Notes under the pieces: model-generated
What the model was told of the DNA's origin: nothing
The model's database searches: none
Seen by the model: the letters and a program-made list of their open reading frames with translations, nothing else
Shown: positions 251 to 10,102 of the stretch, one piece after another
Numbering within the stretch: position 1 is the stretch's first letter
Layout: each line of letters starts with the position of its first letter
Assembly (NCBI GenBank): GCA_964432715.1
Contig: CAYSOW010000002.1
Coordinates: forward strand, 1-50,542
Reading direction: 5' to 3'
Source of the DNA: an uncultured Bacteroides sp.
GTDB lineage: Bacteria > Bacteroidota > Bacteroidia > Bacteroidales > Bacteroidaceae
Length of the DNA: 50,542 nucleotides
Translations under genes and position numbers: made by a program

Positions 251-610
251 ATGACAAATCTCAGTAACGAAGCTTTTGCTGTAATGGCAGTTTGCCCGGA
301 GGCAAAGAAACACTACGGAATAACAGTAGACTATCTCACAAGAAATAGTCTCAAGCTTGTATGGGCTTTCAAAGTAGATCCAGAGAAAGCACACAGAGAG
401 GGTTATGACGAGAAAAATGTAAATGGTAGCATTACTCTAGACGACAATTATCCGGGATGTCCTTATTGTAAATCAAAACAACTTTTTTTCTGTTCATGCG
501 GTGCGATAATGTGCTGGCATGGTCAACGAGTTGTTACCTGTTCCAAATGCGGTGCATCAGGAGAGATTTCATCTATTTCACAAGTAAACCTTAAAGGTGG
601 AGGATTCTAG
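251..610 (+). CDS. Solo TerY-C metal-binding domain protein
   Basis: PGCPYC...FFCSCGAIMC...TCSKCG cysteine pattern typical of TerY-C; lies near the TerY vWA gene. Confidence 0.75.
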   Translation: MTNLSNEAFAVMAVCPEAKKHYGITVDYLTRNSLKLVWAFKVDPEKAHREGYDEKNVNGSITLDDNYPGCPYCKSKQLFFCSCGAIMCWHGQRVVTCSKCGASGEISSISQVNLKGGGF

Positions 611-612
611 CT

Positions 613-1800
613 ATGGGTAAAGGCTTATTTTTCTTTATAGCAATCATACTAATATTCTACGCTTTCTCAGCTATTGCCATCGGAATAGTTGCCATCATAA
701 TTCTTGTGCCATTGATTTGGGGTATACTCGAAATAGTTATCAAGATAAAAGACTCCAAAGAAATAAATTCATCAAAGAAACATTTATACGACCAATTATG
801 CAAGAAGTTTTCACTTGAAGACACATACAAAAAGAACGATATTGATTTTAAAATTTCAAGAGCTATATGGAGAGGGTTCCTACAGAAGAAATCAAACGAT
901 CTAAACGAGTCATTCGATGATATGTTATCAATTATACAGAATTCCTTTACAAGTTCTTCTATATGGCACTGCGAAAGATTTGAGCAGCCAAACGTTCCTA
1001 AATTTGCAAATAGCATTAGCCGGATAAATGCATCATTTAACCGTGATAAATTTATGAGATTAAGAGAATTTGGAGACATTTCCACATTCTGCATAATTGG
1101 GAAAGGGATTGAATTCCATGTCTTTCCACATATATGTATAATTAAATCAGGCATCAATTACGACGTCGTAGACATAAATGACATCACACTTGAAAACTTA
1201 GGTTCATTAACCATCGTAGAAAATGCAAAAGAGATAGTAAAAGGCAACACTCCTTCTTACTACACATACTTACATCAACGTGTAAACGGAGAGCCCGACA
1301 GACGATACAGTTATAATCCGTCATACCCAGTCTATCACTATGGCGGTCTTTCCTTGACATGTAAAAAGTCATATACATTTATTATTGCTGATGAATCCTT
1401 AGCCCTCAACATAATCCAATCATTTACAGATTATAAAGATGCTTTTAATGGAGCCTTATCGAAAGACCAATACGACATTCAACATTGTTCCGTATCAAGT
1501 GACGAATATGCGAGCCTGATACGTCAGCTATTGAAAGAAAATGGGAATAGCTTCATAAAGTCCAAGAAATTTATCGCATTTCTTAGTGATTATAAAGTAT
1601 TCAAGGAGAAGCCCTGTCTCAAATCAGTACTCATGGAACTGACGAACAAATCAACTTGGGACGAGATTCTTGACTCAGGATGTTCATTTAGTACATTAAA
1701 CAAGATAAAAGATAAGTTTGTATCCTCCAATAGCTACAAAGAAGAAGAGGCTACAGAAGCTTTTGCATATATAGCATACGGACTAGGAATTAAATTTTAA
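613..1800 (+). CDS. Membrane-anchored protein with PH-like central domain (DUF4236-associated type) and C-terminal helical domain
   Basis: N-terminal hydrophobic helices; motif YLHQRVNGEPDRRYSYNPSYPVYHYGGL resembles the WxYxNKxGxPDRRFxxNxxxP motif. Confidence 0.5.
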   Translation: MGKGLFFFIAIILIFYAFSAIAIGIVAIIILVPLIWGILEIVIKIKDSKEINSSKKHLYDQLCKKFSLEDTYKKNDIDFKISRAIWRGFLQKKSNDLNESFDDMLSIIQNSFTSSSIWHCERFEQPNVPKFANSISRINASFNRDKFMRLREFGDISTFCIIGKGIEFHVFPHICIIKSGINYDVVDINDITLENLGSLTIVENAKEIVKGNTPSYYTYLHQRVNGEPDRRYSYNPSYPVYHYGGLSLTCKKSYTFIIADESLALNIIQSFTDYKDAFNGALSKDQYDIQHCSVSSDEYASLIRQLLKENGNSFIKSKKFIAFLSDYKVFKEKPCLKSVLMELTNKSTWDEILDSGCSFSTLNKIKDKFVSSNSYKEEEATEAFAYIAYGLGIKF

Positions 1801-1804
1801 AATT

Positions 1805-3073
1805 ATGACAGAACTTAAGCCAGGAACAAAGATATCGCTAACTTCCGGTGGCCAAGTTTCCATTATAAAAGAACTTGGCCGTGGAGGACAAGGTATTGTA
1901 TATCTTGTTGATTTGAAAGGCGAAAAGAAAGCTTTAAAATGGTATATCAATCCACCAGATGATAAGTTCTACAAGAACTTACAGATGAACATACAGAATG
2001 GAGCACCATCTGATGCATTCCTATGGCCGGAGTATTTAACGCTACGCCAAAACGGGAGCTATGGGTATGTAATGAAGTTGCGCCCGCAAAATTACTTCGA
2101 GTTTGGCAACTTTTTACTCGCAAAGAAATCGTTTAAATCATTCACTGCAATGTTTGCAGCCGCAATGAAAATATGCGATGGATTTATGATGTTACACAGA
2201 GTCGGCTACAGCTATCAGGATTTGAATGACGGAAACTTCTTCATTGACCCAATTACAGGAGACGTCCTTATCTGCGATAACGACAACGTAATGCCACAAG
2301 GCGAAAAGTCAGGAATAATGGGCAAGGCACGTTATATGGCTCCGGAAATTGTCGCCGGTGGAATACCTGATAAATACAGTGACCGATTCTCTTTAACCGT
2401 CATTTTATTTATGCTATTCTATGCGAACCACCCGTTTGAAGGTGCAAAAGTAGTTGCATGTCCTTGTATGACAGAATCTTTCGAAAAGAAATTCTACGGA
2501 AGCGAAGCTCTATTTATCTACGATAAAGAAGACAATTCCAATCGTCCGGTACGAGGTATTCATACAAATGTTATTCGTAGGTGGCCTGCATTTCCAGCAA
2601 AACTTCGCGAAACGTTTGAACAAGAATTAGGTCAAGAATGTCTAAGGGATCCACGGAAACGAATGATTGAATCACAATGGGAAAAAATCATAGCTTCCAT
2701 TCGCGACGAGTTAATTTGTTGTCCATTCTGTGGAGAAGAAACTTTCGCAGAAACAGAGCCTAATGCGCAATGCATGGAATGCGGTAAGTCTATTGACGTT
2801 TCAAATCAGATCATCATAGGATCACGAAATATCATCCTTACCAAAGGCACAAAGATATATATTGATAATGATAACACACCTGATTGTGAAGTTGTCGTAC
2901 ATCCTAAAGACCCGGCAAGACTTCTTCTTAAGAATATATCTGAAACAAAGTGGACAGCCGAGACTCCTAGTGGGAAACTAAAAGAAGTTGAGCCAGGGAA
3001 TATGATGCCAATCAACCCCGGCATTAAAGTTTCATTTTACTCAACTTACAAAGGTGAAATTGTAAAGAAATAA
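1805..3073 (+). CDS. Ser/Thr protein kinase of TerY-P triad (YegI-like) with Zn ribbon and FHA-like C-terminus
   Basis: LGRGGQGIVY Gly loop, ALKWY, YQDLNDGNF catalytic loop, CDNDN, YMAPE, SDRFSL; CPFC...CMEC. Confidence 0.9.
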   Translation: MTELKPGTKISLTSGGQVSIIKELGRGGQGIVYLVDLKGEKKALKWYINPPDDKFYKNLQMNIQNGAPSDAFLWPEYLTLRQNGSYGYVMKLRPQNYFEFGNFLLAKKSFKSFTAMFAAAMKICDGFMMLHRVGYSYQDLNDGNFFIDPITGDVLICDNDNVMPQGEKSGIMGKARYMAPEIVAGGIPDKYSDRFSLTVILFMLFYANHPFEGAKVVACPCMTESFEKKFYGSEALFIYDKEDNSNRPVRGIHTNVIRRWPAFPAKLRETFEQELGQECLRDPRKRMIESQWEKIIASIRDELICCPFCGEETFAETEPNAQCMECGKSIDVSNQIIIGSRNIILTKGTKIYIDNDNTPDCEVVVHPKDPARLLLKNISETKWTAETPSGKLKEVEPGNMMPINPGIKVSFYSTYKGEIVKK

Positions 3074-3093
3074 ACCATTAAAAACATTATAAC

Positions 3094-3834
3094 ATGTCAC
3101 TTTTAGATGAAACCGTCAGCGTTCCGCGCAGAACCATGACACTATTCTTCCTCATTGATACCTCCGGCTCAATGGAAGGAAACAAAATCGGAGCAGTTAA
3201 CGATGCAGTAGTCAACGTACTTCCACTACTCAACGAAATTTCAGCTGAAAACCCAGACGCTGAAATTAAAGTTGCAGCACTTGAGTTCTCAAGTGGTACA
3301 AATTGGTTATACTCAGAGCCGAAACTCGCATCAGAGTTCCTTTGGCAAGATGTAACAGCCGGAGGTCTCACCTCTCTTGGAGCTGCTTGCATCGAACTTT
3401 CGAACAAGTTATCTCGTAGTGGATACATGAAATCAGCAAGTGGTTCGTTTGCTCCTGCAATCATACTGCTTTCTGATGGTGGTCCAACAGATGACTTCGA
3501 AAACGGATTGAACAAACTTAAAGCAAACAATTGGTTTAAAGCCGCCATCAAAGTTGCCATTGCCATTGGTGATGATGCCGACAAAGATGTTCTCAAACAA
3601 TTTGCCGGTAATAGTGAAGCTGTTTTTACCGTTCACAACATTGATGCATTAAAACAAATCATCCGTGTCGTGGCCGTCACATCATCACAAATAGGGAGCA
3701 AGAGCAGCACGGCCGGAGACACGACCAAACAAGACCAAGTTATTGAAGAAGTAAAGGGCGCAGTCGAAAACATTGATGGTGCGGAAGTGGCCACTAAAGT
3801 CGACAGCAGTTCTTATGATGATGATTGGGATTAA
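3094..3834 (+). CDS. terY: TerY-like vWA domain protein
   Basis: RRTMTLFFLIDTSGSM MIDAS, GGLTSLG, LLSDGGPTD. Confidence 0.9.
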   Translation: MSLLDETVSVPRRTMTLFFLIDTSGSMEGNKIGAVNDAVVNVLPLLNEISAENPDAEIKVAALEFSSGTNWLYSEPKLASEFLWQDVTAGGLTSLGAACIELSNKLSRSGYMKSASGSFAPAIILLSDGGPTDDFENGLNKLKANNWFKAAIKVAIAIGDDADKDVLKQFAGNSEAVFTVHNIDALKQIIRVVAVTSSQIGSKSSTAGDTTKQDQVIEEVKGAVENIDGAEVATKVDSSSYDDDWD

Positions 3835-5057
3835 TGACTACACGGCATATTAATTTTTCCTGCCAAGGAGAAAGTCATAAGGCTACTAACAAAGTATGTC
3901 AAGACTATTCTTATAGCGCTGTCTATGAGAATGGTCTAGCTATTGCTATTGTCTGCGATGGACACGGTGGTCAAAGATATTTCAGAAGTGATGTTGGCGC
4001 GAGATTTGCCGCGGAAATTACAGAAAAGAATATTTTATTCTTTGTTGACAACATAGACAAATCTTTATTCATGGAAAAACCATACACAGCAGTTTCATCT
4101 ATTGCCACACAGGTGGACCATGCAGAGTTCAACAAAGAGAATGCCATTGATAAAGCACTACGTCAGCTCTTTTCTTCTATCATATTTGATTGGTCGATTC
4201 AAATCAAAGAGCACGCAGCCAACACGCCCCTCACTGAGACAGAGAAAGCATCTGGCATTAAAGCAGAGTGGATTGATGATTTTAACGCAGGAAATTCACT
4301 AGAGAAAGTCTATGGTTGCACCTTAATGGTACATGTCCAGACTCCAGATTATTGGTTTTCATTTCATATCGGAGACGGAAAATGCATTTCATTTGACAAC
4401 AATGCAAATTGGAAAGAGCCAATACCCTGGGATGATCGTTGTTTTCTAAACAAAACCACTTCGCTATGCGATGCACAAGCCATTGAAGAGTTTCGCTATT
4501 GCTATCAAGGGAACAAGGAGTTCCCGGTTGCAGTATTCCTAGCTTCTGACGGTATTGACGATTCTTTCGGTGCAGAAGAGAATATGGTCAACTTTTACGT
4601 TCAAATTCTCAAAAAGCTAAAAGCCTCAACAAACGAGGAAGTGTACGAAGAGTTGGCGACAACGCTGCCACAACTCAGCAAGATAGGGAGTCAGGATGAT
4701 ATGTCCATCTCGCTCATTTATGATAGCGAGCGTATTGCAGCCATCTATCCGAAACTACTTGAATGGCAGATTAAATCAACGAAAGCCGCTATTGACGCCA
4801 TTAACAGTAAGATTGTTGATGATAGGAATTTAATTTCATCCATAGAGCAATCCGATAAGCTAACGACCAAATCAAAAATTGACCTTGATTATGCGACGAC
4901 AGACTTAAACCGATTATACGCGGATAAGATAAAACTGATTAAACGCATAGATGTAGTCTCACAAGAATTATATGGTAAAAACTTTAATCCATACACCGAT
5001 GATGTTGGGACAGAAACTACGGACACAAAAGAGGATATAATAAGGAGAGACTCGTAG
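3834..5057 (+). CDS. PP2C-family protein phosphatase of TerY-P triad with C-terminal helical extension
   Basis: GESH...CQD, VCDGHGG, HIGDG, LASDGI, QDDMS; ATG overlaps the terY stop (TAATG). Confidence 0.9.
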   Translation: MTTRHINFSCQGESHKATNKVCQDYSYSAVYENGLAIAIVCDGHGGQRYFRSDVGARFAAEITEKNILFFVDNIDKSLFMEKPYTAVSSIATQVDHAEFNKENAIDKALRQLFSSIIFDWSIQIKEHAANTPLTETEKASGIKAEWIDDFNAGNSLEKVYGCTLMVHVQTPDYWFSFHIGDGKCISFDNNANWKEPIPWDDRCFLNKTTSLCDAQAIEEFRYCYQGNKEFPVAVFLASDGIDDSFGAEENMVNFYVQILKKLKASTNEEVYEELATTLPQLSKIGSQDDMSISLIYDSERIAAIYPKLLEWQIKSTKAAIDAINSKIVDDRNLISSIEQSDKLTTKSKIDLDYATTDLNRLYADKIKLIKRIDVVSQELYGKNFNPYTDDVGTETTDTKEDIIRRDS

Positions 5058-5084
5058 ATATACAACAACAAGAAGATTATAATT

Positions 5085-6182
5085 ATGGCAACATGTAAGT
5101 ATTGCGGTCAACCTGCAGGCTTGTTTTCTCGAGTGCACAAAGAGTGCGAAGAGAAACACAGAAGTGGAATACAAGGATTGAGCAGAATGCTCCATAAGTA
5201 TTTCTCAGGGGCAATATCTGCCCAAGATATGGGAACGAAAATACAAAAGAACCGTCTTCCATACCATCTTAGCAACGAAGATATTGCAGAAGTATCCGCT
5301 TCCGTAATAAACGATTATGCATCAACCTTACATCGTCCTTTTACGCAACAGACACTCATTCTGATAAAGGATTTCTTAAAAAATATAGGGGTGCCATACA
5401 CGTTAATTAATAAGAACGGAGTGCTTGACGACCTTGGTCAAAAACTTTTTCAGGGATTCTCCGTAGAATATTTTGCACAAGGAGTACCGATGAGTCAAGT
5501 TGCCATTAACACAGCATCTGTCATATCCATACTACCGTTAAGCAGTCAGAAGAAAGAGGAAGCATATATGAATGTTCTGAATAAGGCAGCATCCAACTTC
5601 ATGAAAGGAGGAATGTTAAGCGACAATGAAGAACGACTTATCTCTTCATATGCTAATAGCATCGGAATATCGTTAAACGACCTTCCTGAGCAATATGCTT
5701 CGGAAGATTTATCCAAAATTGGTCAAGCAATTGTGCTTAAAGGATTAAGTCAAGGAAAGCTACCACAACAACCACTAACAGTTCCAGTGATACTCAGCAA
5801 AGGAGAATGTGTATTATGGGTTTATGACCGTGTGACCCTCTATCAGGAAAAAGTAGAACGAGAATATAGAGGAAGAAGCGGAGGTTTTAGTTTTAGAGTC
5901 TGTAAAGGGGTTACATATCGCACCGGACAGTTCCGCGGACGTCCCATTGAGCATAGTTACATGGACTTAGTTAGCGTTGGTTCTTTGGTTATCACGAACA
6001 AGAATCTCATATTCCACAGCCCAACATCAAGTTTAAAGATACCATTTAACAAAATTGTCGGTGTGTCTCCATACTCTGATGGGCTAGAAGTGCATAAAGA
6101 TGGAGCTGGATCCAAACGCACTGTTTTTCAAGGATTTGATAGTTTGTTCGTAATGAACGTGCTTAACCAAATGACCGTATAG
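5085..6182 (+). CDS. Zn-finger + TerB-like helical + PH-like domain protein
   Basis: CKYC...HKEC; GGMLSDNEERLISSYANSIG; GSLVITNKNLIF...KIPFNKI. Confidence 0.55.
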   Translation: MATCKYCGQPAGLFSRVHKECEEKHRSGIQGLSRMLHKYFSGAISAQDMGTKIQKNRLPYHLSNEDIAEVSASVINDYASTLHRPFTQQTLILIKDFLKNIGVPYTLINKNGVLDDLGQKLFQGFSVEYFAQGVPMSQVAINTASVISILPLSSQKKEEAYMNVLNKAASNFMKGGMLSDNEERLISSYANSIGISLNDLPEQYASEDLSKIGQAIVLKGLSQGKLPQQPLTVPVILSKGECVLWVYDRVTLYQEKVEREYRGRSGGFSFRVCKGVTYRTGQFRGRPIEHSYMDLVSVGSLVITNKNLIFHSPTSSLKIPFNKIVGVSPYSDGLEVHKDGAGSKRTVFQGFDSLFVMNVLNQMTV

Positions 6183-6219
6183 CTTACAAAGTATTACGTA
6201 TAACATTTAAACGAAGTTT

Positions 6220-8307
6220 TTGAATATGCTTACACCCAAGAAATCAGGAGGTTTACATTCAAGCCACACTCCCGTATCAAGATTTTTTGTTTACCTCAAG
6301 AACAAATTAAAGTTTTCAAGATGTGGACAAAGGATATTGATTAACAAGGCGGCTACCTACTTTGTGTCTTCACAAATCAACGATAAACTTCGCGATGCTC
6401 TTCAGACGATTATTAACAAGCAAGGTATCGCATCATTGACTCGGCCCCAATGTATAAATACACTTTCAGACATTTATAATTTTTCGTTGGAAATTGATTC
6501 AAAAAAATTTATAGTGGAATTCTTTAGGAGTGGCATACTAAACGAGTTTATCGCTTTACAGCACGATAAAATTGGAACGTTACAACAAGCATACATTCAT
6601 TTAAAGAACAATCCTTACCACAGCTATAATTCGGAACTCGTTAGAAATACAGTTCTAACCATTATTTCAGCGACCTCAAACATCTCACACGACGATATTC
6701 TGAAATTTTCAAAATGTACCCCATCTGCTAAAAAAAGGATAGGGAATTCTTCTTTGGACAACAAATCAAATAGTTCATCAAACAACTTTAAATTAATTCT
6801 CTCTTTTATTATTGGATTACTACTATTGTATGGAGGTACCATTTTTTACTTATACATATTCACAGGATGTTGGCTATTTTTCATTGTACTTATTACAGGA
6901 TTTATTCATTTGGGATACATTGTGAATATAACAAATGATTCTGGTCTCATCCTCATGAGCAATTCAGGCGAAAGAGAAAGGACGAAAGCAGCTATATTCC
7001 CAGTTTGTATCGGCATGTTGCTTAATGCATTCATAGGATTTTTGTTTTTCTCCGATTATTTCTGTTCTTTGATTTGTAGTTATGTATTTGACGACATATC
7101 GGAGGGAATTCTTCAGAAATGCTACGACTTTTTATTTGGAGATTATATAAGTTGTGATGAATCAGAGAGTGTTATTACCAAAATGCTTTTAGCCGTTGAT
7201 ATATTCTTCTTAAGCAGTATGATTTTGGATGCCTACACTTCTTTTACCGGAAGTAAGACTGTTAACTTTAAAAAACATACAAAGTTACTATTAAGAACTT
7301 CTATTATCACCATCATAGGATATATAATTCTTTTTAGCATACCAGCAATAAACAGAGCCTGGGGAAAAATCGAATATGCAAGATTATTAAATGCAATAAA
7401 ACAAGATGTTATAGCAACAATTAACTTAAATGAGCAATTGCGATCTTCTCGAGATAATTTATGCCCTGAACTATCATTCAAAGGCACCAAACTTGATATG
7501 TTATTTGCAAATATAGATTCGACTAATAATAAATTTCACTGTGGAACATATCGTCTACCAATTCGAGCAGATTATTCAAACGTCTATGAAATTGACAAGA
7601 GTCTCGATATAACAGTTATAGATAGACATATAAAATCTCTTCACGAGAACATTTATAACAGTTATAATTATGACTACAAAGCTAATGAAGGAGATACACA
7701 ATCTAAACTTGCCGATACGTTTGAAGAAGCAACAATGAATTTTCGTACCGCCTTAAAAACAGACATTATCGGCATGATGAATGACTTTCAAGTCAATTTT
7801 GACAACAAAGAAGCTCGAGTTTACATCTTCGAGAACAAGGGGAAAGTAGGGGCCATTCTAGTTAAAGTATATTCATCTAATACGGATTCTTTTTTCACAT
7901 TCTCAAAAAGACTATATTCATCCAATACAGATTCTATTTACACATCCTTAAAAGAACTATATTCACAGAAATATGGAATTGCTGAACAAATTCCGAAATT
8001 CTCGAATGATTCTAAAGAAGAAATCTATTGGACATTCAAAAACGGGACAATTTATATAACGGATCATACAATTTTATATATATCATCCTCTTTCATTAGC
8101 CAATTAAAAAAACAAAGTGATTTATTCAAGCAAGAAAGGGCACGTCTCAAAGAAGAGGCTATAGAGAAACAAAGACTTGAACAAGAAGCTGCTGAACGCA
8201 AAAGGCAACAAGAATATAGAGAGGCCGAGCGTAAAAAGCAACAACAAGAACAAGTCGAAAAAGAGAAACGAGAAGCTAATCACAAGAAGGCGTTCAATGA
8301 AATCTGA
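6220..8307 (+). CDS. Multi-pass membrane protein with C-terminal charged coiled coil (start uncertain; GTG at 6364 possible)
   Basis: Long ORF, several hydrophobic segments, E/K/Q/R-rich tail. Confidence 0.6.
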   Translation: MNMLTPKKSGGLHSSHTPVSRFFVYLKNKLKFSRCGQRILINKAATYFVSSQINDKLRDALQTIINKQGIASLTRPQCINTLSDIYNFSLEIDSKKFIVEFFRSGILNEFIALQHDKIGTLQQAYIHLKNNPYHSYNSELVRNTVLTIISATSNISHDDILKFSKCTPSAKKRIGNSSLDNKSNSSSNNFKLILSFIIGLLLLYGGTIFYLYIFTGCWLFFIVLITGFIHLGYIVNITNDSGLILMSNSGERERTKAAIFPVCIGMLLNAFIGFLFFSDYFCSLICSYVFDDISEGILQKCYDFLFGDYISCDESESVITKMLLAVDIFFLSSMILDAYTSFTGSKTVNFKKHTKLLLRTSIITIIGYIILFSIPAINRAWGKIEYARLLNAIKQDVIATINLNEQLRSSRDNLCPELSFKGTKLDMLFANIDSTNNKFHCGTYRLPIRADYSNVYEIDKSLDITVIDRHIKSLHENIYNSYNYDYKANEGDTQSKLADTFEEATMNFRTALKTDIIGMMNDFQVNFDNKEARVYIFENKGKVGAILVKVYSSNTDSFFTFSKRLYSSNTDSIYTSLKELYSQKYGIAEQIPKFSNDSKEEIYWTFKNGTIYITDHTILYISSSFISQLKKQSDLFKQERARLKEEAIEKQRLEQEAAERKRQQEYREAERKKQQQEQVEKEKREANHKKAFNEI

Positions 8308-8461: not shown

Positions 8462-10102
8462 ATGACGATCAACGACATACAGAAATTAATCGCGAACGAC
8501 GAGCATCGCATGCTCGAGCTGAAGAAGAGTACCGGTGAGCTCAAAGACGGTATGCACACTGCATGTGCATTTCTCAACACAGACGGTGGTTGGCTCATCT
8601 TTGGCGTTGCTCCAACCTCCTTAAAAATCACAGGTCAAGACGTTACTGATGCAACTCAAAGAGAAATAGCACAGGCATTGGCTGGTCTTGAGCCTGTAGT
8701 AGACGTAAGAGTTGAGTATATTCCGGTGCATGAGCCTGATGGGCCCAAAGTCATAGCGATTCACTTTGACGCATACGTTTGGGGCAAAACGCCATACACC
8801 TTCCAAGGATGCCCCTACTACAAAGTTGAAAGCACAACGATGCGAATGCCTCGTGATATGTTTTCAGCTCGTCTGATTGCTTGTAACATAAAGCAGCATT
8901 CGTGGGAGCGACAACCGGCTGAAGGTATTACACTTGACGATATAAACCAAGACAGGGTAAAGAATTCCGTCAGAATGGGAGTTGACGCCGGTCGTATCAT
9001 AACCAGCGCATCGTATGACAACGTTTATGACATTCTCGAGAAATGGCATTTGCTGACCAAAGAGGGACAGCCCAATAATGCAGCAGCTCTATTATTTGGA
9101 ACGAACACCCGTGAATATCCACAATTTAAGCTACAAATGGCTCGTTTTGTCGGAAATAACAAGAACGAGTTTTTGGACAGTCTGACTGTTGAGGGTAATT
9201 TCTTTGACCTACTGGATGCAGGCACTTCATTTTTCTTCAAGCATCTGTTCCAGAGTGGTCGAGTTGTCGGCTTTATACGTGAGGAGCATTTGGAGATTCC
9301 CGCTGAGGCTTTGCGTGAGGCATTAACAAACGCACTTTGTCACAGACAATGGGAGAAGGCGAATCAGGCTATATGCATTGCCATCTTTGACGATAGACTA
9401 GAGATTTCTAATCCTGGATGTTTGCCACAAGAGTTACCATTGGAGCAATTAAAACAGCCTCATAGTTCATATCCCTACAATCCGATTATAGCAGAGGTAT
9501 TGTTCCAAATCAAGATGCTTGAGAAGTGGGGTACCGGTGTTAACCGCATCATTGAAGCATGCCACGTGAATAATGTCCCGGAACCCGAATGGACGAACGA
9601 GCATGGATTAGTTACCGTTACATTCAAACGAATCAAAGGTTTTAGGGCACGACAAAGTAACAATGTAAACGACAATGTAAGTAACGATGTAAGCGAAAAA
9701 AGTAACGAAGTAAGTAAGAAAAGTAACGAAGTAAGTAAGAAAAGTAACGAAGTAAGTAAGAAAAGTAACGATGTAAATGAGAAAAGTAACGATGTAAACG
9801 ACAATGTAAGTAACGAAGTAAGTGAGAAAAGTAACGAAGTAAATAACAAAGGCAAAAAAACAGGTATCAGAGTAGCACTATCTAATGATAGACAAAAAGC
9901 CATTATTGATTTCTGTATGATTCCAAGAAGCAGACGCGAAATATTGGAACATATTGGACTTACTTTGCAAACCAAGCACTTCACACACTATATAAAGCCC
10001 TTAATAGATAGCGGTCAATTACAACTGACACAGCCAGACACGCCTAAAAGTCCAACTCAAAAATATGTTGTAAAATCTGACAAGAAACAGAAGATTCACT
10101 AA
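8462..10102 (+). CDS. Schlafen/AlbA_2 + HATPase_c_4 + winged-helix protein
   Basis: DEHRMLELKKS, CAFLNTDGGWLIFGV; ALREALTNALCHR, DDRLEISNPG, EKWGTG; C-terminal PKSPTQKY. Confidence 0.85.
   Translation: MTINDIQKLIANDEHRMLELKKSTGELKDGMHTACAFLNTDGGWLIFGVAPTSLKITGQDVTDATQREIAQALAGLEPVVDVRVEYIPVHEPDGPKVIAIHFDAYVWGKTPYTFQGCPYYKVESTTMRMPRDMFSARLIACNIKQHSWERQPAEGITLDDINQDRVKNSVRMGVDAGRIITSASYDNVYDILEKWHLLTKEGQPNNAAALLFGTNTREYPQFKLQMARFVGNNKNEFLDSLTVEGNFFDLLDAGTSFFFKHLFQSGRVVGFIREEHLEIPAEALREALTNALCHRQWEKANQAICIAIFDDRLEISNPGCLPQELPLEQLKQPHSSYPYNPIIAEVLFQIKMLEKWGTGVNRIIEACHVNNVPEPEWTNEHGLVTVTFKRIKGFRARQSNNVNDNVSNDVSEKSNEVSKKSNEVSKKSNEVSKKSNDVNEKSNDVNDNVSNEVSEKSNEVNNKGKKTGIRVALSNDRQKAIIDFCMIPRSRREILEHIGLTLQTKHFTHYIKPLIDSGQLQLTQPDTPKSPTQKYVVKSDKKQKIH
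9654..9847 (+). repeat. In-frame tandem repeat (21-nt SNEVSKK units mixed with 12-nt units)
   Basis: AGTAACGAAGTAAGTAAGAAA three times exactly at 9701-9763, plus degenerate copies. Confidence 0.95.

Follow-up and report, generated by a model that had tools for sequence, protein, structure and literature searches.

Which inputs reach a TerY-P phospho-switch, and through which proteins? The question is raised by seven co-oriented open reading frames (ORFs; g1 to g7, Table 1) at positions 251-8307 of a 50,542-nucleotide (nt) stretch of DNA, hereafter the window, from an uncultured Bacteroides sp. (GenBank assembly GCA_964432715.1, contig CAYSOW010000002.1, positions 1 to 50,542). They encode a stand-alone TerY-C protein (g1), a Ser/Thr kinase (g3), a von Willebrand factor A (vWA) protein resembling TerY, with a metal ion-dependent adhesion site (MIDAS; g4), a PP2C phosphatase (g5) and three accessory proteins (g2, g6 and g7). 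TerY-P is a proven anti-phage module, and no description of its trigger or of a TerY ligand was found in the literature searched. An earlier reading of the sequence alone, the sequence-only reading, had seen an expanded TerY-P locus here and overlooked a helical domain of about 100 amino acids (aa) common to the C-terminus of g2 and the N-terminus of g7, which we call the tag. The triad of vWA, PP2C and kinase is real and of ordinary type; the new layer is the portable tag, which a complex model predicts to dock on the TerY MIDAS. Our preferred reading, to which we give slightly better than even credence, is that the tag docks through an aspartate in the vWA metal site, so that interchangeable proteins, likely sensing phage or envelope, would control one kinase.

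A portable helical tag linked to the kinase clade

The two tag copies of the locus are 16% identical to each other, and the g2 copy was modelled as an all-alpha domain with a pLDDT (predicted local distance difference test) score of 90. Two sets of loci were compared: a Bacteroidales set, comprising the best 80 of 105 kinase loci from GTDB and almost all from that order (the related loci), and an environmental set, the best 80 of 469 loci from a distant kinase alignment in a scan covering 11 of 64 parts. A tag profile built from the N-termini of three neighbour families recovered about 29 protein families in 51 of the 80 related loci, or 49 with a stricter length filter. The Bacteroidales-only profile detected the tag in 30 of the 80 environmental loci, rising to 57 after one iteration, and 43 of the 49 environmental loci of at least 6 kb carry it; a database search returned 1,523 matching clusters at 50% identity. 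Scanning 48 members gave no consistent Pfam family and no match to a Pfam effector-associated domain (EAD); there was no match in PHROGs and no credible one among PDB sequences. Fold searches yielded nothing at E<=0.001 with Foldseek, an unspecific best VIA-align match (Z 5.6, root mean square deviation (rmsd) 3.3, 76 aligned) and Atlas scores of at most 0.83, an absence of family and fold matches that falls short of proving a new fold. No description of the tag was found in the literature searched either, though the domain might appear in the supplementary material of Anantharaman 2012 or Gao 2020.

The tag is tightly linked to this clade of kinases. Among 166 tag copies, 164 lie on the kinase strand and 124 within 3 kb of the kinase. 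A quick tree of the kinase, drawn from 110 rows after omission of three quarters of the Bacteroidales rows, has the tag on each of its main branches. The genome that holds the window has one copy each of the kinase and the vWA gene, and its only tag copies are the two in the locus. When 150 unselected genomes of the family were inspected, the same 2 held both tag and TerY, on different contigs; 400 genomes of the order gave 4 clean tag matches (2 of them in seed loci), each 1-4 kb from TerY, and a close TerY in 7. A first look at 300 phylum-wide Bacteroidota genomes with profile A7, which may miss divergent copies, did not find the tag. In five classical TerY-P loci the tag was not detected (best E value 6); these were the yegL region of E. 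coli, one ter plasmid and three loci on plasmids in which AAA/helicase genes follow. In one genome (G137, L088:8296-12656) a gene combining the tag with MORN heads a cluster of GrpE-like, Hsp70-like and MORN genes away from the TerY locus.

Partners of the tag are varied. Our partner scan covered 89 of 150 database matches and 65 of 76 environmental ORFs, and in the resulting 67 partner groups the tag was N-terminal in 54, C-terminal in 10 and internal in 3. Repeat and binding domains were found beside it (WD40, TPR, LRR, Sel1, RCC1, WG repeat, beta-helix, fn3, SH3 and peptidoglycan (PG)-binding), together with FGE-sulfatase, Lcl, FtsK and helicases (SF1/SF2 and an Hhe-like helicase-nuclease), and many partners had no family; some proteins carry multiple or tandem tags. 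Among 174 kinase, 146 vWA, 131 PP2C and 76 TerY-C ORF matches, none joined the tag to an intact form of these core proteins. Single database proteins join the tag to a MIDAS-degenerate TerY (P0044), to a full g6 (P0124) and to a piece resembling the IF2 N-terminus (E 5e-5). On the Methylomonas plasmid CP157007 (L101:11435-15989), kinase, vWA and PP2C genes are followed by five tandem tagged genes whose tags are 89-98% identical and whose fusions include Sel1, Tim44, Clp_N (the ClpA N-domain) and zf-C4_ClpX (the ClpX zinc-binding domain). These five genes resemble a recent capture of host fragments as decoys; a search for relatives of the Methylomonas tags on plasmids returned only the plasmid itself. 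A cultured isolate, Prevotella sp. E2-28, bears on a plasmid (L100, 10096-24490) the cassette, g6 and four tagged genes, FtsK and FGE-sulfatase fusions among them, and would be a convenient starting material for experiments.

Predicted docking on the TerY metal site

A single residue of the tag is near-invariant: position 30, at which 117 of 121 rows have Asp and 2 have Glu, corresponds to D326 of g2 (nt 1588-1590) and to nt 6469-6471 in g7. TerY with Mg was chosen as model partner on the idea that this aspartate completes the MIDAS. The complex of tag and vWA scored 0.81 (0.80-0.82) and the best of three controls 0.00, runs shared at least 96% of contacts, and pLDDT of the partners was at least 84. 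Solved pairs attained this mark in 116 of 157 cases and mismatched pairs in 2 of 215, rates that apply here only roughly. In the model Asp30 contacts S24, S26 and T93 of the vWA with an expected error of 0.7-0.8 Å, and the interface consists entirely of the MIDAS face. The MIDAS of g4 is intact; its residues D22, S24, S26, T93 and D128 are invariant in 34 rows and in 79 of 79 Bacteroidales rows.

The other parts of the switch also have intact motifs. Invariant residues of g3 across 32 rows include the G-loop glycines, K45, D139, N144, D158-N159-D160 and A179-P180-E181; in its zinc ribbon C306, C309 and C323 are invariant and C326 nearly so. The PP2C motifs CQD, DGHGG, GDG, SDG and QDD are all present in g5. 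In the stand-alone anti-phage TerY-P of Gao 2020 the kinase reportedly ends in an OB fold; the C-terminal beta domain of g3 had no significant sequence match in Pfam or PDB, neither to FHA nor to OB domains. The protein g4 is 34% identical to plasmid genes annotated terY.

In integrin I domains, ligand binding at the MIDAS alters the shape of the domain. By analogy, a tag that lends its aspartate to the metal site of TerY, the contact predicted here, would change the shape of TerY, and the reshaped TerY may shift the balance between kinase and PP2C. Tagged binding domains would supply the input: most partners would be sensors or decoys, since they are mostly binding repeats or pieces of host proteins, and a minority (helicases, FtsK) effectors. 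On this view g2 and g7 would be inputs anchored in the membrane with their tags in the cytoplasm, g6 might act as an adaptor further downstream, and the output would be growth arrest or another block to phage. A further-reaching proposal is a widespread TerY-P clade of plug-and-play immune receptors in which any protein that gains the tag, ClpA, ClpX and IF2 decoys included, docks on the TerY MIDAS and is thereby connected to one kinase switch; the metal site of TerY would then bind a protein ligand instead of sensing metal. We put this forward tentatively, with more doubt than belief.

Conserved core and variable accessory genes

At E<=1e-8, the 80 related loci contained TerY-C in 62, vWA in 76, PP2C in 71 and g6 in 33 cases; g2 was found near full length in 5 and g7 in none. 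These counts define TerY-C, kinase, vWA and PP2C as a core, with g6 frequent and the rest variable: g6 is the most conserved accessory gene and the other accessories are mostly interchangeable. The expansion proposed by the sequence-only reading stands, and a fixed seven-gene system is rejected by the same counts for g2, g6 and g7. That reading had also taken the kinase-first order as a mark of novelty, which we reject: all 76 related loci that have a vWA gene are kinase-first, the norm of the clade, and the environmental loci show both orders (35 kinase-first, 20 vWA-first, 1 opposite and 24 without vWA in view), so gene order carries little meaning. The rest of its description of the layout was accurate. 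ORF positions confirmed the seven co-oriented genes, the gaps of 2, 4, 20 and 27 nt and the TAATG overlap of g4 and g5 (a further 37-43 nt precede g7); Pfam matches agreed on TerY-C, kinase, vWA and PP2C (Table 1); and the AT-rich character was evident in a GC content of 37.7%, against 51.1% for the genome, where the lowest of 306 8-kb blocks has 37.5%.

Cassettes with kinases 64-70% identical were seen in assemblies labelled Lachnospiraceae, Blautia and methanogenic archaeon (L021, L029, L041 and L057), which may reflect transfer or mis-binning. A search for phage-borne copies of the kinase gave one distant match only. Two kinds of neighbour recur beside the cassette: a potassium-channel-like gene (L005:854-1609 family) in 12 of the 80 related loci and a non-specific endonuclease (L033:5394-6191 family) in 15.

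Defence context

All four genes of the HXS system (HxsABCD) were present in 28 of the 80 related loci, and in 29 of 30 cases HxsB lay downstream of PP2C at a distance of at most 5 kb; HxsB, HxsC and HxsD scored above the NCBIfam cut-offs and HxsA below. The HxsB background was 8 of 400 order genomes. In L002, L004, L005, L007 and 24 more loci, HxsABCD is nested directly after a tagged gene (family F4) in the TerY-P operon. HXS is an anti-phage system that blocks phage DNA entry, and the main text of the paper on it does not mention TerY, vWA or kinase (PMC13128918). BREX (bacteriophage exclusion) genes neighbour 4 loci. A role in defence is inferred from the nesting of anti-phage HXS genes in these 28 relatives, and we consider an anti-phage role of the locus probable; the defence context suggested by the sequence-only reading is supported. 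A ZorA/ZorB-like pair adjoins the cassette in L014, L015, L055, L074 and L075, in three cases with a DarT-domain protein upstream; neither was accepted as a defence call, as these matches lay below curated cut-offs (ZorB1) or had no PADLOC counterpart. According to two reports, TerY-P protects against T7-like phages (PMC7699616, PMC10889362), and it protected Pseudomonas against Autographiviridae (PMC10889362).

Weighing the docking of the tag and its alternatives

Several observations weigh against docking of the tag on TerY as the input of a defence switch. The structural case is a single complex model, which was supplied with alignments of our own and with Mg and to which the calibration of the tool does not extend, and the vWA was the sole partner modelled. 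Many solved complexes have acidic residues bound at MIDAS sites, which may bias the model towards an Asp-MIDAS pose, and classical TerY proteins from loci that have no tag largely keep the residues of the MIDAS face. The tag is not obligatory, being missing from 3 of the 7 order genomes with a close TerY and from 6 of the 49 long environmental loci; the tag gene and TerY are on separate contigs in G144 and G137, the G144 copy of the tag among housekeeping-type genes. To the same side belongs a fifth match in the order genomes (G316, E 8e-4, two stops, no TerY), which we set aside as spurious. Host-fragment decoys are few (ClpA-N and ClpX-ZBD on one plasmid and one IF2-N match). As to defence, the HXS counts are inflated by kinship, a close TerY is present in just 1 of the 8 genomes that make up the HxsB background, and the window has no HXS. 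Running PADLOC on the window, a check proposed with the sequence-only reading, returned only generic kinase matches and nothing for g1, g2, g4, g5 or g7.

Docking might also occur as predicted on a hub for general envelope, metal or stress signalling that only shares islands with defence genes. TerY-P has been proposed as a metal-sensing phospho-switch tied to tellurite resistance (as summarised in PMC11090510), PG-binding, SH3, fn3, Tim44 and membrane proteins are among the partners, one tag gene heads the GrpE-like and Hsp70-like cluster, and the kinase fold is all that PADLOC recognised in the window. Against these points stand the patchy presence of the system (7/400; 2/150), its AT-rich island, the rapid turnover of partners, the nested HXS and the neighbouring BREX, as well as the TerY-P phenotypes published in PMC7699616 and PMC10889362, which are anti-phage; we regard such a hub as unlikely, yet as a serious candidate. 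Enzymes among the partners (SF1/SF2 helicases, the Hhe-like helicase-nuclease, FtsK) would suit a different arrangement, in which tagged proteins are outputs that TerY offers to the kinase or PP2C as substrates or holds inactive until phosphorylation releases them. Most partners, however, are non-enzymatic binding repeats and no Ser or Thr position of the tag reaches 50% conservation, which makes this arrangement distinctly improbable.

That the tag is a classical EAD with homotypic tag-tag contacts, the vWA pose being a model artefact, is suggested by its small size, all-alpha fold, terminal position, multiple copies and tandem occurrence in some proteins, and by the closeness of same-locus copies (median identity 27% vs 18%). 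Of 92 copies, 28 have their nearest neighbour in their own locus. We think there is little chance of this, because intact core proteins are not fused to the tag, 35 of 52 loci have a single copy, no Pfam EAD matched and the vWA model beat its controls. Another alternative takes the accessory genes for passengers of the island that have nothing to do with the ordinary TerY-P triad next to them, and draws on the rarity of whole-gene g2 and g7 in relatives; it is largely refuted by the co-occurrence of tag and TerY in unselected genomes, the pattern of strand and distance, and the spread over the kinase tree. If docking of the tag on TerY holds, a portable domain with a single essential Asp names the TerY ligand and supplies point mutants for testing the mechanism by binding assay, and from the tag profile with its 1,523 clusters a list of potential sensors, decoys and effectors can be drawn up.

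Features of the locus and neighbouring genes

No Pfam family was assigned to g2, g6 or g7 in a scan of the window ORFs. The protein g2, a PH-like membrane protein in the sequence-only reading, has its hydropathy maximum at residues 21-39. Its middle domain bears an HQRVNG-PDRRY motif and matches the C-terminal part of phrog_17982 (E 1.5e-7). Residues 162-254 of g2, a divergent family (F20) found upstream of TerY-C in L019, L023, L030, L034 and L037, and a neighbour family (F10) share matches to portions of PHROGs 17982 and 38135, which suggests, from sequence similarity, one split-and-shuffled domain set around these loci. For g6, described in the sequence-only reading as a Zn/TerB-like/PH protein, the C-terminal PH fold has support from a model with pLDDT 86, whose match list is dominated by PH domains (best Z 10.6, rmsd 2.7, 97 aligned), and a putative N-terminal Zn site (C4/C7/H18/C21) is invariant in 23 rows; the TerB-like middle had no support past a weak lead. 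Searches for homology between g2 and g6 and between tag and g6 found none. The protein g7 comprises the N-terminal tag, five predicted membrane helices, a soluble domain and a charged helical tail, and tagged homologues occur among the database matches and on the Prevotella plasmid.

The locus begins 250 nt from the contig end, which leaves upstream genes out of view. Downstream, the low-GC g8 (GC at third codon positions 0.41, against 0.68 in the next gene) is probably the last gene of the island, outside the switch; a homologue was present in 4 of the 80 related loci at E<=1e-8. It contains 21-nt tandem repeats at 9654-9866 that encode a linker rich in Asn, Ser, Lys, Glu and Val. Predictions of promoters and terminators in the locus were at chance level, and no boundary repeats were found flanking it. 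Short contigs from three gut metatranscriptome studies overlap parts of the locus and two span g1/g2 and g3/g4, contigs being no proof of transcription or co-transcription. An empty-site check found no cassette gene in 1.5-kb flanks of the cyclophilin gene in five relatives, a weak result as four 'upstream' windows were misoriented.

Table 1 Features of the locus and the gene that follows it, in window positions
Feature	Description	Position	Strand	Evidence
g1	stand-alone protein with a TerY-C metal-binding domain, 119 aa	251..610	+	Pfam TerY_C, E 9e-9
g2	variable accessory protein, 395 aa: N-terminal hydrophobic anchor, middle domain, C-terminal helical tag	613..1800	+	
Tag copy 1	g2 residues 297-395	1501..1797	+	E 3e-12, profile built without the g2 copy
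g3	Ser/Thr kinase, zinc ribbon and C-terminal beta-rich domain, 422 aa	1805..3073	+	Pfam Pkinase, 8e-13
g4	TerY-like vWA with intact MIDAS, 246 aa; predicted tag receptor	3094..3834	+	Pfam VWA, 8e-12
g5	PP2C phosphatase with C-terminal extension, 407 aa; TAATG-coupled to g4	3834..5057	+	Pfam PP2C_2, 9e-27
g6	putative Zn site, helical region and PH fold, 365 aa; untagged here	5085..6182	+	
g7	about 693 aa; start uncertain (TTG 6220 or ATG 6226)	6220/6226..8307	+	
Tag copy 2	N-terminal in g7	6382..6696	+	E 1.6e-5, profile built without the g7 copy
g8	AlbA_2, HATPase_c_4 and Fic-like_C protein	8462..10102	+	Pfam

Comparison with known systems

The HXS system (PMC13128918) immediately follows PP2C and a tagged gene in the 28 relatives described above, and differs in being absent from the window. 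CoCoNuT-type genes for a McrBC-like GTPase, helicase or nuclease were not found among the downstream ORFs of the window, the upstream side being cut by the contig end; Pfam found no TerZABCDE gene in the locus, and no genome search for TerD or TerC was made.

The TerY-P triad was described earlier by Anantharaman 2012 and Gao 2020 (as summarised in PMC11090510, PMC4978471 and PMC7699616). Kinship with it, as claimed by the sequence-only reading, was upheld: the window has the vWA with intact MIDAS, the PP2C and the kinase-zinc ribbon fusion in one operon-like block and in a defence-island context, in agreement with the TerY-P definition in PMC11090510. Unlike the five classical loci, to whose kinases g3 is 22-26% identical, the locus has DND in place of DFG, a stand-alone TerY-C, a kinase-first order and variable tagged accessories, none of which accessories was found in those loci. 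The E. coli YegL-PphC (YegK)-YegI operon likewise combines vWA, PP2C and kinase, and PphC dephosphorylates YegI (bioRxiv 10.1101/303594), a logic that by analogy likely applies here too. It differs in sequence (vWA 28%, kinase 22% identical), in gene order and in having no tag within the 25 kb examined.

With the EADs of Kaur et al. 2020 (PMC7159879) the tag shares the character of a small, helical, non-enzymatic terminal adaptor that joins variable domains to a constant core, with extra copies elsewhere in the genome. It differs from them in that it matches no Pfam EAD and that its fusions in the loci involve no intact core protein, and its predicted pairing is heterotypic and metal-bridged on the vWA, against the homotypic pairing of EADs.

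The closest parallel to the predicted contact is the vWA of integrin I domains, in which an acidic residue of the ligand completes the metal shell of the MIDAS. Here, in contrast, the ligand would be a portable cytoplasmic domain present on many proteins of bacterial kinase cassettes. If the docking is true, the locus would offer a bacterial parallel to integrin-type ligand recognition, put to use for a modular wiring of immunity, with the tag as a means of connecting new inputs to a kinase.

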